Shown: in pieces, positions 1-4,898 of the stretch
How positions within the stretch are numbered: position 1 is the stretch's first letter
Layout: every line of letters begins with the position of its first letter
Source: a virus
Taxonomy: Duplodnaviria > Heunggongvirae > Uroviricota > Caudoviricetes
Virus record (IMG/VR): IMGVR_UViG_2534681628_000018
Length of the DNA stretch: 4,898 bases
Reading direction: 5' to 3' (one strand)
The notes under the pieces: generated by a model
The model's input: the letters and a program-made list of their open reading frames with translations, nothing else
The model's database searches: none
Told to the model about the DNA's origin: nothing
Position numbers and translations under genes: made by a program

Positions 1-1
1 T

Positions 2-169
2 CGCGATGTACGCACAATCGTTGAGCTGGGAAAAACAATCGACTTTGATGCCAGAATCGTTATTCCATTTGAAGGCGTGCGCCACAATGCGCTGGATGAT
101 GCCCGTCACCAGGCAAAATACGTTTCAGCAATCTGGCAAAAACTGATCCCGAATCCGGTTGATTTTTAA
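2..169 (+). CDS. C-terminal fragment of a DnaQ-like (DEDDh) 3'-5' exonuclease; 5' end lies outside the window
   Basis: Frame is open from the window edge to TAA at 167-169 and translates to RDVRTIVELGKTIDFDARIVIPFEGVRHNALDDARHQAKYVSAIWQKLIPNPVDF. The segment H-N-A-L-D-D-A...Y fits the Exo III motif (H-x-A-x-x-D-A) of DnaQ/RNase T/ExoX-type exonucleases. Not in the ORF track because it contains no start codon. Only 55 residues are visible. Confidence 0.45.
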   Translation, partial: RDVRTIVELGKTIDFDARIVIPFEGVRHNALDDARHQAKYVSAIWQKLIPNPVDF

Positions 170-235
170 TGTTCAACCCTGATCGCCGTCCCCGAATTAT
201 ATTGGCGGCGGTCATGCTGTAAGGCACGTGACCAC

Positions 236-487
236 ATGTACGAATTAACTCTATCGCCAGCAGAGATTCAAGAGATCACGAAATACGAGCGATACACAAA
301 ACAGCAACACCAGTTAAGGCTGCACGGTATCCCATTTGTAATCGGTCCTAAAAACGAACCAATAGTTCTTCGCAGGGATATTCCACACGGACTGACTACG
401 ATGCCAAAAGCACCTGAACTGGTTTCCGCTGAACCCGATTTTGAGGCGCTGAACAATGGGAAGACCAAGAAAAAACAAAAAAGATAA
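236..487 (+). CDS. xis: Excisionase (lambda Xis-like recombination directionality factor), 83 aa
   Basis: Small ORF immediately upstream of and overlapping int. The N-terminus MYELTL resembles lambda Xis (MYLTLQEW...), and the basic C-terminal tail NNGKTKKKQKR resembles lambda's ...RNGKKAKS. ATG at 236 is the only start in this frame after the upstream stop at 167-169; AAGG lies about 12 nt upstream. Confidence 0.65.
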   Translation: MYELTLSPAEIQEITKYERYTKQQHQLRLHGIPFVIGPKNEPIVLRRDIPHGLTTMPKAPELVSAEPDFEALNNGKTKKKQKR

Positions 488-1475
488 TGCACTACCACCG
501 CGTGTTAGATCGAATGGTTACAGTTACGTATGGAAACCCGAAGGAAGCACAAGAACTATAGGGCTCGGAAGAGTGCGGGAAACCAGCATAGCTAAAGTCT
601 GGCAAAATTATGAGCTGGAAAAAGCAAAACTCCACAACATAATGACAGTAGCTAAATTATGGCACATGTTTATGGACTCCCCTGCATTTACAGAACTGGC
701 CCCCCGAACCCAAAAAGATTATCGGCAACATCAAAGGGCATTGTTGGCAGTATTCGGAAAAGTGCTTGCTGATAATGTAAAAATTGAACAGGTAAGAATT
801 TTCATGGATAAGCGAGGACTTGAGAGCAAGACCCAGGCAAACCATGAACTGGCAAGTCTGAGCCGTATATACGGATGGGGATACGAGCGTGGGTATGTAA
901 AAAATAATCCATGCAAAGGAGTCAGAAAATTCACACTTAAAGCCCGTACTGTTTACATCACCGATGAACAGTATGCTGCAATATATGCGGAAGCAATTCC
1001 ACAGTTATGTATTGCAATGGAGATATCCTATCTTTGTGCGGCAAGGCTCGGTGATGTACTCGAGCTGAAATGGCAGGATATTATGGATAAAGGGATTTAC
1101 ATTGAGCAAAACAAGACTGGCACTAAACAAATCAAGGAATGGTCTCCGCGATTACGTACGGCGATCCAGTTAGCCCGAAATGTATCTTCCGGCACATGCG
1201 AGTATGTGATCAACACAACCAAAGGCGAGAAGGTAATAGCCAAGACGCTGAACAACTGGTGGAATCAGGCTAAACGTGCAGCCGAGCAAAAAGCCGGCGT
1301 TCCGTTTGGATGCAACTTCCATGACATAAAAGCCAAAGGGATTTCAGATTACGAAGGCAGCAGTCGCGACAAACAAATTTTCAGTGGACACAAAACAGAA
1401 AATCAGGTGTTGATTTACGATCGTAAAACCAAAATCACCCCAACACTGGATTTGCCGCTTGTGGTCAGTAAGTAG
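456..1475 (+). CDS. int: Site-specific tyrosine recombinase, lambda Int family, 339 aa
   Basis: N-terminus MGRPRKNKKDNALPPRVRSNGYSYVWKPEG...GLGRVRE parallels the lambda/HK022 Int arm-binding domain (MGRRRSHERRDLPPNLYIRNNGYY...GLGRDRR). Catalytic-domain landmarks align by eye: AARLGDVLELKWQDI (Arg I), IEQNKTGTK (Lys), FHDIK (box II His), GHK (His), VLIYDRK (Tyr nucleophile). First in-frame ATG after the stop at 450-452; TAG stop at 1473-1475. Confidence 0.92.
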   Translation: MGRPRKNKKDNALPPRVRSNGYSYVWKPEGSTRTIGLGRVRETSIAKVWQNYELEKAKLHNIMTVAKLWHMFMDSPAFTELAPRTQKDYRQHQRALLAVFGKVLADNVKIEQVRIFMDKRGLESKTQANHELASLSRIYGWGYERGYVKNNPCKGVRKFTLKARTVYITDEQYAAIYAEAIPQLCIAMEISYLCAARLGDVLELKWQDIMDKGIYIEQNKTGTKQIKEWSPRLRTAIQLARNVSSGTCEYVINTTKGEKVIAKTLNNWWNQAKRAAEQKAGVPFGCNFHDIKAKGISDYEGSSRDKQIFSGHKTENQVLIYDRKTKITPTLDLPLVVSK

Positions 1476-1480
1476 GCAAT

Positions 1481-1496
1481 CCAGAAAATTTTCTGG
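1481..1496. other. Perfect 16-bp palindrome CCAGAAAATTTTCTGG, 5 nt downstream of the int stop
   Basis: Read directly from the sequence; self-complementary. No T-run follows on either strand, so more likely a protein-binding site or RNA stem than an intrinsic terminator. Confidence 0.3.
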
Positions 1497-1503
1497 CAAA
1501 AAG

Positions 1504-1513
1504 ACTTGGTATA
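1504..1513 (+). repeat. Candidate integrase arm-type site ACTTGGTATA (int-proximal arm)
   Basis: The same 10-mer recurs at 1733-1742 on the other side of the att core, and TTGGTATATT (1506-1515) recurs at 1747-1756. A degenerate copy CTTGGTGTT lies at 1549-1557. Confidence 0.4.
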
Positions 1514-1616
1514 TTAACTCTGAATAGCTCCCTAATATCTTGATTTTTCTTGGTGTTAGGTCTGATTAACTTTTCAGCTATTTTGCGTATTGCACTGATT
1601 TTTCTTTATTTTTCTT

Positions 1617-1676
1617 CGGTCTTGAAAACCGGCGACCCGAAAGGGTTCCAGAGTTCGAATCTCTGCGCTTCCGCCA
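1617..1676 (+). other. att core: 3'-terminal 60 nt of a tRNA-Ser(UGA) gene (serT-type), from the anticodon stem through the CCA end; not a complete tRNA
   Basis: CGGTCTTGAAAACCGGCGACCCGAAAGGGTTCCAGAGTTCGAATCTCTGCGCTTCCGCCA matches the 3' part of E. coli tRNA-Ser(UGA) as I recall it: anticodon loop CUUGAAA, long variable arm, T-arm CAGAG/TTCGAAT/CTCTG, acceptor 3' strand CGCTTCC, discriminator G, CCA. The required 5' acceptor strand GGAAGCG and D-arm are absent from the ~30 nt upstream (1587-1616 is AT-rich and unrelated). Confidence 0.85.
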
Positions 1677-1684
1677 AATAATCA

Positions 1685-1718
1685 AGGGGTTACAAAATGG
1701 TAGCCCCTTTGCTTTTTT
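1685..1718 (+). terminator. Rho-independent terminator directly downstream of the tRNA-Ser fragment; possibly bidirectional
   Basis: Stem AGGGGTTAC (1685-1693) pairs with GTAGCCCCT (1700-1708), 9 bp with one G-U pair, loop AAAATG, followed by TTGCTTTTTT (1709-1718). On the minus strand the same hairpin is followed by a weaker U-rich stretch (TGATTATTTGG), so it could also end the tfa/stf transcript. Confidence 0.6.
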
Positions 1719-1817: not shown

Positions 1818-2402
1818 TCAAGGTTTTTCTGAGCTAACGACCAGTTTCCTGATTGAACCCAAATCCTCCAGATTATTCAGTTCTTCCTTCATCTCCCGCT
1901 GACGTCGATAAATCTCGTCATTGCGATCGAGCTGCGCCTGCGCCATTGCTGCCGCCAGTTCTTCCAGTTCCGGCATTGACAGTTTCACCTGTTGATTATC
2001 GGCATCACCCCATGCAAGGGCGGTTCGTGCCGTATCGGATTTCGCCGCCATTACTACCGGATAAAGACGGGCCATTGAGTCGGGGCCAGCGTTCCAGGTG
2101 CGACCGTTCCATTCAAAGGTGAACGGCAGTGCTTCCTGTTCTGTGCGCCATGCCTCGATTTCCTGCTTTTTGGCATCCTTCGCCGCGGCGATAAGTTCCG
2201 GCGTGACAGTGAAAGGGGCGATTTCGCCCCATTTGCCGTTCTGCAACTCTTCCCAGATGCGCTGGCCTGTCGGTGCGGTATCATCCTGCATGGCGGTATA
2301 CGGGACGAATTCCGTTTCACCTTCAAATAACACCTCGCAGTCAACCGCACCATTTTCAAGATAATGGGCGTTTCTGATGCCCTTTACCGCTCTGATTTTC
2401 AT
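1818..2402 (-). CDS. tfa: Tail fibre assembly / tail fibre chaperone-like protein, 194 aa
   Basis: Begins 13 nt downstream of the stf stop on the same strand, with GGGGAA about 8 nt upstream of its ATG (minus-strand reading TAA-CGGGGAATAAAAC-ATG). Same length as lambda Tfa (194 aa) and shares a central W-N-G-x-x-W segment (FTFEWNGRTWNAG vs lambda EYQKWNGTAWVKD). The C-terminal half is not obviously lambda-Tfa-like, so the assignment rests mainly on synteny. Confidence 0.6.
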   Translation of the reverse strand: MKIRAVKGIRNAHYLENGAVDCEVLFEGETEFVPYTAMQDDTAPTGQRIWEELQNGKWGEIAPFTVTPELIAAAKDAKKQEIEAWRTEQEALPFTFEWNGRTWNAGPDSMARLYPVVMAAKSDTARTALAWGDADNQQVKLSMPELEELAAAMAQAQLDRNDEIYRRQREMKEELNNLEDLGSIRKLVVSSEKP

Positions 2403-2415
2403 GTTTTATTCCCCG

Positions 2416-4898
2416 TTACTCGATGCGCACAAACAGGCAGATACGACCGGTTATTCCTTTAGAGTCCCTGACCCCGGATAGCGCCATATAACGCCCCGGG
2501 AAAGTGTACCCTGTAGCTCCTGCACTCGGTGCGGAATTGTAGGAGCCAACCCCAGCAGAAGATATTAAGCACGAAAGATTAACTCCGCCCAGTTGTGACC
2601 CCTGCACCACATCACCCAGGCCAATATTGATTTCTTTATCCCCGGAAGTTGTTCCGCGATAAACAGCCAGCACTGGAACACCCACTGCCGGGTATTTGAA
2701 ATATGAGCCTGAGCCTGCTGTCCGGGACAGTAAGAACGCCAGCGAATCGCCGTCGTAAATAATGGGGCTTACTGTTGCATTCCAGTTGTTTCCACTCCAG
2801 CGGTAAGTCAGGCGATGAATACTGTGCTCACCTTCGTAATACTGGTTAAAACACAGCAGCGTTTTGAATTTACGCACTGTGTCTGACTCGTCGTTATCAA
2901 AGGGTGACCACATCACATCAATGATGCCGTTAAATTTCGTTGTGCCAGCCAGCAGCATGGAAGAGTCCGCAATACTGACCGCATAACGCCCCGGGGCGGC
3001 CTTTTTCAGCCATTCAACAAAATCGGCCTGCCCGTTAAATGTCAGAGCGTCGGCACTGGTGAATGCCTGACCGAATCCATGCATGCCGGACAGTGCCAGT
3101 CTGCCCGGTGTGCGGTCGCGGATATCGCTCTGGGGTTCCATCGTCGCAGCCGCTTTCAGTTCAAGCTCCGTGCGCATGGCTTCAGGCGTGTTTCGTGCCA
3201 GTAATGAGCGAGCCTTGTTGCTGCATGGAATTGCTTTTGCTTTAAAGTTATCACCAAAATAAAGGAGAGAGTTTTGTCCCACCCCTGCCTTGCTGATACT
3301 GGTTAACGTATCGTTAAGCGGCTGTTTACCTGCCAGTGCATTAGTGACGGTTGTCGCAAAGTTCGGGTCATTGCCCAGTGCCGCTGCCAGCTCGTTCAGC
3401 GTGTCCAGGGCTTCCGGTGATGAGCCAACCAGTGCGGCGAGCAGTTTGCGCACAAACGCCGCATTGGCTATTTCAGTGCCTGCTGCATCATCCTGTGGTG
3501 TTGGCGTGGACGGCGTTCCGGTCAGTGCCGGGCTGTTCAGTGGCGCTCGGGTTTCAATCAGTGCCCGGAGTGAAGCCTCGTTGACTTTCAGGTTTTCCCA
3601 GCCAACCAGATAACCACCTCCGGTAGTCCAGTAGCGATTGTAATAAATATGACCGTTAATACCGTAAAAAATAATGATTTTGGCCACATATGCCGTATCA
3701 TGGCTGATTTGAGGTTCCGGCCAGATAATTTCAACGGTACCCTTGAACAGCACGCCCTGTATTACCGCATTTGTATCTGCATAAACGGCATAGCGTCCGG
3801 GATTTGCCGTTTTTACCCAGCGGAGAAAATCGGCCTCTGTTTTAAACTCGGTCCTGTCGCCGATGAAAAATACTTTCCCGAATCCAAACATGCCGGGAAT
3901 CGCCAGACGGCCTTCGGTGCGGTCGTAAATATTCTCCTGCGCATCCTTCTGTGCTGCATTGCCAAGTTGTGGCGTCAGATTCGTCCAGGTGACCGGGGCG
4001 GAGATATTATCGCCACGAACGGTCATAAGAATCCGTCCGTCTTTTCCAAAAAACAGAACCAGCTTTGTTGCTGTCTGGCTGGTTTTGTCGGCCCGGCCAT
4101 TATCCAGCCAGATAATTTCTGTTATCCCGGTTGTTTCTTCCGTTCGTGTGGCAAAGGTGTAATAGCGTCCCGGGTGCAGGTTGTGAGCGGTTCTGGCTAC
4201 AGTCGCCATATCGCTGGCAATAATTGAACGCGCTCCGGCGTCCGTCATTCCGTAACCATACGCACCGGGAAGCGCAATGCGGCCTTTCGTGCTGTCGTGA
4301 ATGTCTGTCTGAATATCCATTACCGCTGCGCTTTTCAGCTCAAGCTCATTGCGCATAGCTTCCACTGTGGCCTGTGCCAGCAGTGACCGGGCTTTTTCTG
4401 ACAGTGGAGACAGTGAAGCATTTCCGTCCTGATTAAAGCACAGAAGATTATCTGCCCGTTCTTCCAGATTACTGATTGCGGTTAACACGTCACTGAGTGG
4501 CTGTTTACCTGCCAGTGCTTTGGTGACTGTCGTCGCAAAATTCGGGTCATTTCCCAGCGCCGCTGCCAGCTCGTTCAGCGTGTCCAGGGCTTCCGGTGAC
4601 GAGTCAACCAGTGCAGCGAGCAGTTTGCGGACAAATGCCGCGTTCGCTGTTTCCAGACCGGCAGCATCGTCCGGTGGGGTTGGTGTGGTGGGCGTGCCGG
4701 TGAATGCCGGGCTGTCCAGCGGCGCTTTTGTTTTCGTCTCGTCCATGACGGTTTTGACGGCCTTCGGTGTGGCTGCCAGTTCTTCGCTGTCGTTGTCCGT
4801 ATCACTACAGAGTTGCACCAGGCCTTTTTCTGTCGTGGAAGCACTGCTTCCCTTCAGGTCATCAACTATCCGTTGCGCCTCGTCCCTGTGCTGTTTTG
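2416..4898 (-). CDS. stf: Side tail fibre protein (lambda Stf-like), C-terminal ~827 codons; N-terminus lies beyond the window edge
   Basis: The ORF track starts it at a GTG (4818), but the frame carries no stop in the codons from 4896 down to 4819 (...KQHRDEAQRIVDDLKGSSASTTEKGLVQLCSDTDNDSEELAATPKAVK). This continues the match to the conserved lambda Stf segment (...RKGIVQLSSATNSTSETLAATPKAVKVVMDETNRKAPLDSPALTGTP...NTLNELAAALGNDPDFATTMTNALAGKQP). TAA stop at 2416-2418. Confidence 0.9.
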   Translation of the reverse strand, partial: KQHRDEAQRIVDDLKGSSASTTEKGLVQLCSDTDNDSEELAATPKAVKTVMDETKTKAPLDSPAFTGTPTTPTPPDDAAGLETANAAFVRKLLAALVDSSPEALDTLNELAAALGNDPNFATTVTKALAGKQPLSDVLTAISNLEERADNLLCFNQDGNASLSPLSEKARSLLAQATVEAMRNELELKSAAVMDIQTDIHDSTKGRIALPGAYGYGMTDAGARSIIASDMATVARTAHNLHPGRYYTFATRTEETTGITEIIWLDNGRADKTSQTATKLVLFFGKDGRILMTVRGDNISAPVTWTNLTPQLGNAAQKDAQENIYDRTEGRLAIPGMFGFGKVFFIGDRTEFKTEADFLRWVKTANPGRYAVYADTNAVIQGVLFKGTVEIIWPEPQISHDTAYVAKIIIFYGINGHIYYNRYWTTGGGYLVGWENLKVNEASLRALIETRAPLNSPALTGTPSTPTPQDDAAGTEIANAAFVRKLLAALVGSSPEALDTLNELAAALGNDPNFATTVTNALAGKQPLNDTLTSISKAGVGQNSLLYFGDNFKAKAIPCSNKARSLLARNTPEAMRTELELKAAATMEPQSDIRDRTPGRLALSGMHGFGQAFTSADALTFNGQADFVEWLKKAAPGRYAVSIADSSMLLAGTTKFNGIIDVMWSPFDNDESDTVRKFKTLLCFNQYYEGEHSIHRLTYRWSGNNWNATVSPIIYDGDSLAFLLSRTAGSGSYFKYPAVGVPVLAVYRGTTSGDKEINIGLGDVVQGSQLGGVNLSCLISSAGVGSYNSAPSAGATGYTFPGRYMALSGVRDSKGITGRICLFVRIE
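3302..3547. repeat. Intragenic direct repeat, copy A (~246 bp), encoding the second copy of the conserved Stf collar segment
   Basis: Aligns without gaps to 4481-4726 at roughly 80-85% identity by hand count, including a 41-bp perfect match (3380-3420 = 4559-4599, GCCGCTGCCAGCTCGTTCAGCGTGTCCAGGGCTTCCGGTGA). Confidence 0.85.
4481..4726. repeat. Intragenic direct repeat, copy B (~246 bp), encoding the first copy of the conserved Stf collar segment
   Basis: See copy A. The copies lie 1,179 bp apart, an exact multiple of three, so they are in the same reading frame and orientation. Confidence 0.85.

Follow-up and report, generated by a model that had tools for sequence, protein, structure and literature searches.

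Tail fibres determine the targets of phages and tailocins and are what engineers exchange when redirecting either to new hosts. A 4,898-base stretch of phage DNA, IMG/VR record IMGVR_UViG_2534681628_000018 (Caudoviricetes; the window), raises the question of what a repeated domain in such a fibre might do. Its minus strand carries the distal part of a tail fibre gene in which a preliminary description, made from the letters of the DNA alone, had recognized three similar modules in series and suggested that they are receptor- or carbohydrate-binding units. The analysis described here indicates that the triplicated domain is real at the level of sequence and statistically solid, and it refines the domain boundaries. 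Overall, we consider it probable that the gene encodes a trimeric fibre in which the modules (M1 to M3) form Knob-like nodes and the C-terminal tip forms the head, that a DUF4376 protein acts as chaperone, and that the fibre was assembled from cassettes.

Three diverged modules in the distal fibre

The fibre open reading frame (ORF) leaves the right end of the window. Residue i of its product corresponds to window position 4896-3(i-1), and the distal 660 residues are arranged in the order S1-L1-M1-M2-S2-L2-M3-tip, where S denotes a shaft segment and L a linker. The parts are as follows (aa, amino acids; HMM, hidden Markov model):

2416-4896, minus strand: tail fibre ORF, C-terminal 826 aa plus stop (2416-2418); an open frame, with the gene continuing past the right end of the window
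4720-4839, minus strand: Phage_fiber_2 repeat, residues 20-59; Pfam PF03406, E 8.6e-16; Mu tail fibre S (5yvq/8ju3)
4405-4734, minus strand: shaft segment S1 (110 aa, first of two copies), residues 55-164
4333-4404, minus strand: linker L1, residues 165-188, KARSLLAQATVEAMRNELELK; from regular expression and alignment
3967-4332, minus strand: module M1, knob type 1, residues 189-310; from BLASTP to M2 and M3 and an HMM domain
3586-3966, minus strand: module M2, knob type 2, the generic type of the family, residues 311-437; hypervariable loops at 376-405
3226-3555, minus strand: shaft segment S2 (110 aa, second of two copies), residues 448-557
3154-3225, minus strand: linker L2, residues 558-581, KARSLLARNTPEAMRTELELK; from regular expression and alignment
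2746-3153, minus strand: module M3, knob type 3, residues 582-717; always directly before the tip in relatives
2419-2745, minus strand: C-terminal tip, residues 718-826 (109 aa); Gly/Ser-rich, predicted mostly beta; presumed receptor-binding head

The 826-aa product is identical to a partial database entry of the same length (P0045), has an 800-aa version in E. coli P0299917.6 (P0048), and its PHROG matches are to tail fibre families. Full-length homologues have between 1032 and 1087 aa, share 83-98% identity with it, and have a PF08400 prophage tail fibre domain at the N-terminus.

Strong evidence that the modules are paralogues came from pairwise BLASTP. M1 aligned with M2 over 110 aa at 32% identity (E 3.4e-15), M1 with M3 over 150 aa at 36% identity (E 9.9e-24), and M2 with M3 over 101 aa at 41% identity (E 7.3e-24). 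These values are far past chance and bear out the proposed paralogy. The homology spans 122-136 residues, so that the modules exceed the ~80 aa first estimated by half. The motif [DN]-I-x-D-x-T-x-G-R-[IL]-A-[LI]-[PS]-G-x-x-G-[FY]-G occurs exactly three times, close to where it had been placed, at residues 198-216 (4249-4305), 322-340 (3877-3933) and 591-609 (3070-3126), with PGRY following each time at residues 242, 366 and 635. The longer signature A-D-F-x-x-W-x-K-x-A-x-P-G-R-Y, described as common to all three copies, is exact in M2 and M3, while M1 has DMATVARTAHNLHPGRY. An ARSLLA...ELELK linker does occur twice, at residues 169-188 and 562-581.

The fibre also contains a larger repeat that is absent from the preliminary description. 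The shaft segments S1 and S2 share 73% aa identity (E 6e-52 by segment BLASTP), and the 110-aa shaft segment together with the 24-aa linker makes up a unit that is present twice. In the DNA there is a direct repeat of 265 nt (3290-3554 and 4469-4733), with 83% identity between copies and a spacing of 1179 nt. This repeat is a plausible substrate for deletion or duplication of L1-M1-M2, and a likely cause of draft-assembly breaks in the fibre gene. A PDB sequence search with the fibre gave matches limited to the shaft, where residues 66-149 of S1 match the tail collar fibre gp4 (PDB 9d93, E 4e-10), and to the Phage_fiber_2 stretch (Mu fibre S). The PF03406 match scores 57.7 bits against a Pfam gathering cut-off of 22, and lies upstream of the modules, outside them. 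Pfam has no family that matches the modules or the tip, either in the fibre product or in 32 diverse relatives.

BLASTP, alignments and profile comparison agree that three diverged domains in series are followed by a different C-terminal domain. The distinct Gly/Ser-rich domain that had been proposed for positions 2416-2900 therefore exists, but its true extent is 2419-2745; the longer interval takes in the end of M3. Glycine and serine make up 29% of the tip, compared to 15% of the whole fibre product. The possibility that the tip is a fourth, degenerate module was also considered, and a phmmer search with the tip gave secondary matches inside some modules. In a profile-profile comparison, no more than 9 columns, those around PGRY, could be aligned (probability 1%), and this candidate was rejected. 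The tip does contain a fourth PGRY (2488-2499, residues 800-803), in FPGRYMALSG as compared to APGRYAVSI in the modules, with no wider profile homology.

A predicted Knob-like fold

The fold of the modules was addressed by running AlphaFold2 on single chains with paralogue-rich alignments, for M2 and for M3 plus tip. The M2 model has a mean predicted local distance difference test (pLDDT) score of 78.9, rising to ~90 for a core of residues 35-125 that contains a helix and 5-6 strands (strands at 37-39, 55-63, 71-79, 94-100 and 105-111; helix at 42-51). The model of M3 plus tip has a mean pLDDT of 82.1, and the elements of M3 come in the same order as in M2, plus one strand. Each module is predicted to consist of a Gly-rich neck of ~35 residues, with the consensus D-x-Q-x-x-I-x-D-x-T-x-G-R-x-A-x-P-G-x-x-G-x-G, after which comes a core with a single helix and an antiparallel sheet of 5-6 strands. 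Possibly the neck is a repeat element in its own right, which also exists without a knob core. Some long fibre proteins of 724-1932 aa (representatives P0236, P0249 and P0252) match only the first 30-40 positions of the module profile, several times each, at 10-19 bits.

Buth et al. described a group of Knob-like domains that includes phi11 gp45, phage K gp144, T4 gp34 and AS12 gp42, naming 5EFV, 5M9F, T4 gp34 and 6EU4 as Knob-like (PMC6116203). The knob is described as a 5-6-stranded antiparallel sheet whose strands are joined by loops, one of them bearing a short helix (PMC6116203). The M2 and M3 models have this combination of sheet and helix, and the modules are located as Knob-like domains are, within a phage fibre between shaft segments, with M1 and M2 in tandem. 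In a Foldseek search, the top ranks were taken by the R1 pyocin fibre 6cl5, 9euf_8 and 5m9f. These matches are weak (E of at least 0.18), and for that reason the assignment of the module fold as Knob-like is made with moderate confidence. It has been considered that the modules instead have a fold of their own, only superficially like fibre knobs, and define a new class of fibre domain. This is quite unlikely, since two search methods and two independent models rank the same fibre knob proteins at the top. Moreover, a short helix with 5-6 antiparallel strands fits the published description of a knob, and the neck accounts for the extra length. Taken as Knob-like domains, the modules belong to a known structural kind, within which they form a new sequence family that had not been catalogued, and the fibre is a typical phage mosaic.

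Possible receptor binding by the tip or by the modules

Variability among alleles was expressed as mean column entropy among 110 close homologues:

Tip: 0.65 bits (highest)
L2: 0.61 bits
M2: 0.41 bits; loops 376-405, 0.7 up to 1.09 bits
S2: 0.35 bits
M3: 0.28 bits
M1: 0.20 bits
S1: 0.08 bits

Among the modules, only the M2 loops rival the tip. A tip that varies most, together with conserved M1 and M3, is what one would predict were the tip chiefly responsible for specificity. In most representatives of the family, 101-118 residues remain after the last knob, and ~60 such tails are homologous to the tip. The tip is likely the primary binding head.

Additional evidence comes from the gene that begins 13 bases downstream of the fibre gene:

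1818-2402, minus strand: DUF4376 protein, 194 aa; PF14301, E 1.6e-16; PHROG 1141; presumed fibre chaperone

DUF4376 proteins are fibre chaperones in the Alteromonas phages V22 and A5, and in V22 the chaperone was shown experimentally to be required for the fibre (PMC7289586, PMC10579305). The V22 and A5 fibres have a stem-neck-knob(s)-head organization, with the knob duplicated in A5 (PMC7289586, PMC10579305). Because the neighbourhood in the window parallels these fibre-chaperone pairs, the knob-tip-DUF4376 unit looks like a conserved host-recognition cassette. The DUF4376 protein has no match to Caudo_TAP (Tfa) at E up to 1, and a PDB sequence search with it returned nothing meaningful. A search for related loci with two strict patterns, which gave 11 loci and is not a census, found single-knob fibre genes of Salmonella, E. 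coli, Shigella and Yersinia that are followed by close homologues of the DUF4376 gene (L005, L006, L011, L015). E. coli ECMA0423 and Shigella flexneri SFBU1023 each have five loci in which a single-knob fibre precedes a DUF4376 gene (L006-L014). At several of these the knob and the tip are in different frames, and some adjoin IpaH-like leucine-rich-repeat genes.

These observations are consistent with a model in which, in the trimer, three copies of a module core would pack round the fibre axis into a globular node of the Knob-like kind present in R-type pyocin fibres, T4 gp34 and the receptor-binding proteins of staphylococcal phages. The knobs would serve chiefly as nodes for folding and registration, and as spacers setting fibre length and stiffness, with the 109-residue tip as the main receptor-binding head and the DUF4376 protein folding it from the C-terminus. 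As pyocin Knob2 suggests by analogy, the variable M2 loops could provide an additional contact site, weaker than the tip. Knob-like domains are mainly trimer-forming structural nodes, and ligand binding has been demonstrated in some cases only (PMC6116203).

The preliminary description favoured a different role for the modules, with each being an independent receptor- or carbohydrate-binding unit and thus three sites in series plus the tip. Such a role has precedents: Knob-like domains can bind, as the K1F endosialidase's beta-prism does sialic acid, and Knob2 is among the regions of the R-pyocin fibre with the greatest diversity (PMC6116203). Moreover, the M2 loops, at 0.7-1.1 bits, are comparable with the tip. 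Nonetheless, we consider it rather unlikely that every module is a binding unit. M1 and M3 are conserved across alleles with differing tips, the positions that stay unchanged in all knob types are for the most part scaffold residues (Gly, Pro and aromatics), one knob suffices in most relatives, and no lectin or carbohydrate-binding family was matched in Pfam. Binding is possible for M2, but binding by all three modules sits poorly with the conservation of M1 and M3. A narrower proposal is that the fibre has two separate binding sites, with the hypervariable M2 loops, ~390 residues upstream of the tip and spaced from it by S2-L2-M3, as another contact to a receptor or glycan that evolves independently. 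This proposal is speculative, and the odds are against it. If it were true, separated contacts could orient the fibre on the cell and help to trigger the contractile tail, as proposed for R-pyocins, and the gain and loss of shaft-knob cassettes by recombination would be a general way of tuning geometry in enterobacterial prophages.

Several points weigh against the model of structural knobs and a binding tip. The conserved ~35-residue neck is modelled at low confidence in both AlphaFold2 monomers, and the trimeric packing round the fibre axis is inferred, since the models are of single chains. Across the S2-L2 junction (residues 526-570; 3211-3318), variability is like that of the tip, at 0.6-1.0 bits, while the matching stretch of S1-L1 is nearly invariant; this variability may mark a recombination boundary, which is the only account of it that the model offers. 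Interpretation of the entropy data is also challenging since allele variability can stem from recombination rather than from selection for receptor change.

Distribution and origin of the three-knob form

A profile search covering 1.84 billion representative proteins matched 95, of which 77 matched at E up to 1e-10. Three knobs were found in 3 representatives, two in ~14 and one in ~68; these counts are lower bounds, since many entries are fragments. A word-indexed search with the module profile returned fragments of at most 235 aa, and so informs on diversity and not on architecture. Among close relatives the picture is different. All 120 of the best homologues (83-98% identity), from E. coli, E. 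marmotae, E. albertii and Salmonella, have three modules at the same positions, and 110 of them are at least 1000 aa long with open frames. Rac-SA53 tail3 and the E. coli A36 fibre also carry three modules, and the triplication is therefore not specific to this phage, as had been thought possible. Within the sequences covered, the triple form is the rule among close relatives and the exception across the family. At least 80% of positions 2416-4400 is present in 22 of 5,426 complete E. coli genomes, and the best complete-genome copies of the window-type fibre gene have 83-88% DNA identity. Named members of the family come only from Escherichia/Shigella, Salmonella and Yersinia. A tblastn search with M3 plus tip matched only 13 of 50,697 phage records, lambda not among them. 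Many NCBI records label fibre homologues and fragments as "shikimate transporter" (e.g. P0060, P0065 and P0092; H17 and H19), an evident propagated misannotation.

Since the window is a short draft contig of 4898 bp that ends within the gene, and the gene holds an internal repeat of 83% identity, the three-module arrangement could in principle be an artefact of misassembly across the 265-nt repeat, or a decaying, inactive fusion of two fibre genes. This is exceedingly unlikely. The same architecture is uninterrupted in complete genomes (E. coli A36, W and others among the 22), in Rac-SA53, and throughout the 120 top-ranked homologues, 110 of them with long open frames.

How the three-knob form arose is suggested by the arrangement of knobs in relatives. 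Knob instances group into three types and not by protein. M2-like knobs are the generic single knob before a tip, M1-like knobs are confined to the first place in a tandem pair, and M3-like knobs to the place directly before the tip. Where knobs are separated in relatives, they are always 142-144 aa apart. One 662-aa protein (P0174) has a single knob, and its S-L-M3-tip is 92% identical to that of the window-type fibre. Other relatives have the orders M1-M2-tip (P0171 and P0173), M2-S-L-M3-tip (P0169) and M-S-M-S-M-tip (P0256). On these comparisons, the three-knob form has been shown not to come from a recent local triplication, and it combines pre-existing knob types that diverged long ago. 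The conserved shaft segment, the copies of which share 83% nucleotide identity, is the likely recombination point. Recombination through it would have joined an M1-M2 unit to an S-L-M3-tip unit, and unequal exchange between S copies could add or remove units.

Comparison with known fibres

There are parallels with R-type pyocin fibres (PA0620; PDB 6CL6, 6CL5 and 6CU2). Both have a small domain, predicted here to consist of a helix and 5-6 strands, that is repeated between rod or shaft segments in a fibre presumed here to be trimeric, and a separate C-terminal head downstream of the knobs; these pyocin fibres were also among the top structural matches (PMC6116203). In both, the most variable regions are one knob and the C-terminal domain. 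The differences are that there is no detectable sequence similarity, that the modules here are ~125 aa long with a Gly-rich neck compared to ~83 aa in the pyocins, and that the three knobs here are arranged as two adjacent ones and one beyond a repeated 143-aa shaft-linker cassette. The presumed chaperone here is of the DUF4376 family.

Alteromonas V22 gp26/gp27 and A5 gp8/gp9 share the organization of one or more knobs and a distal head with a DUF4376 gene directly after, and the number of knobs varies among those relatives too, with one in V22 and two in A5 (PMC10579305, PMC7289586). The hosts and sequences differ. In the Alteromonas phages, duplication of the knob accompanies a longer chaperone hairpin, whereas the downstream protein in the family described here is 191-194 aa for fibres with one or three knobs, and extra knobs bring an extra shaft cassette.

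Likeness to lambda Stf, with which the fibre had been compared, extends at most to the N-terminal domain, where full-length homologues share PF08400 outside the window, and does not include the distal part. The order of fibre gene, small downstream gene, attP and int is also shared with lambda stf-tfa. Searching a six-frame translation of lambda 18500-23500 (stf-tfa) with knob and tip HMMs gave no match, with all E values above 1, in line with the lambda distal fibre being a gp37-like needle (PMC12617516). With no module in that region of lambda, and a single copy in most relatives, the modules do not count as standard equipment of Stf proteins in general. Unlike in lambda, the downstream protein is DUF4376 rather than a member of the Tfa family, and the carrying phage has a contractile tail.

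True homologues are Rac-SA53 tail3 and the E. coli A36 fibre, which have the same M1-M2-S-L-M3-tip order. The phiP27 fibre is also a homologue: M3 plus tip, used as query, aligns with it from end to end at 29% identity, and the phiP27 gene downstream of the fibre has 85% DNA identity. The Rac-SA53, phiP27 and A36 fibres are allelic variants, and their records annotate no internal domains.

The analysis leaves current ideas of fibre function unchanged and describes an ordinary, uncatalogued case of fibre assembly from reusable cassettes. It defines a knob-plus-tip-plus-DUF4376 cassette beyond any Pfam model, a shaft-linker spacer of constant length (143 aa), and naturally occurring variants that have one, two or three knobs and a nearly identical tip. 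The domain boundaries can serve the annotation of several thousand prophage fibre genes of Escherichia, Shigella, Salmonella and Yersinia, and the natural series of knob numbers is suited to testing the effects of knob count and fibre length.

Phage context

In the 4898 bases of the window, the plus strand carries an exonuclease gene (its end only) and the genes for a DUF4224 protein and a tyrosine integrase, and the minus strand carries the DUF4376 protein gene and the long fibre ORF:

236-487, plus strand: DUF4224 gene
456-1475, plus strand: tyrosine integrase (PF00589), assigned to the same phage as the fibre by comparison of window 1-1710 with the A36 prophage end
1617-1676, plus strand: attachment-site core, equal to the last 60 nt of tRNA-Ser, as shown by aligning it to the tRNA-Ser that is annotated in E. 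coli A36, and to phage Evi

In E. coli A36, a prophage of ~41 kb has fibre and DUF4376 genes at one end, beside tRNA-Ser, and exo-DUF4224-int at the other; these two ends are the two parts that are joined in the window. Positions 1-1710 are 97.7% identical to the exo-DUF4224-int end. The A36 prophage has genes for a tail sheath, a tube, a Mu-type baseplate (J/gp47) and a P27-type small terminase subunit, and also has a first, shorter fibre set. The window is best explained as the attP region and final genes of a P27-like temperate E. coli phage with a contractile tail. As judged by alignment, the window is in the attP configuration of a single phage, with the integrase end (1-1616) and the fibre end joined via the 60-nt core, because positions 1-1710 match the far end of the A36 prophage and 1617-1676 is the 3' end of the tRNA. 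The DNA would thus come from an excised or circular phage, or from the junction of a tandem lysogen. ARAGORN and Rfam found no complete tRNA in the window; the tRNA-Ser fragment was found by alignment. An origin of the integrase from a neighbouring Evi-like prophage was considered, and was dropped because the A36 prophage, which carries the fibre as well, has an int end 97.7% identical to window 1-1710. The DUF4224 ORF and the start of the integrase ORF overlap by 32 bases, an arrangement that is annotated identically in A36; the annotation of phage Evi has a shorter integrase, of 888 bp.

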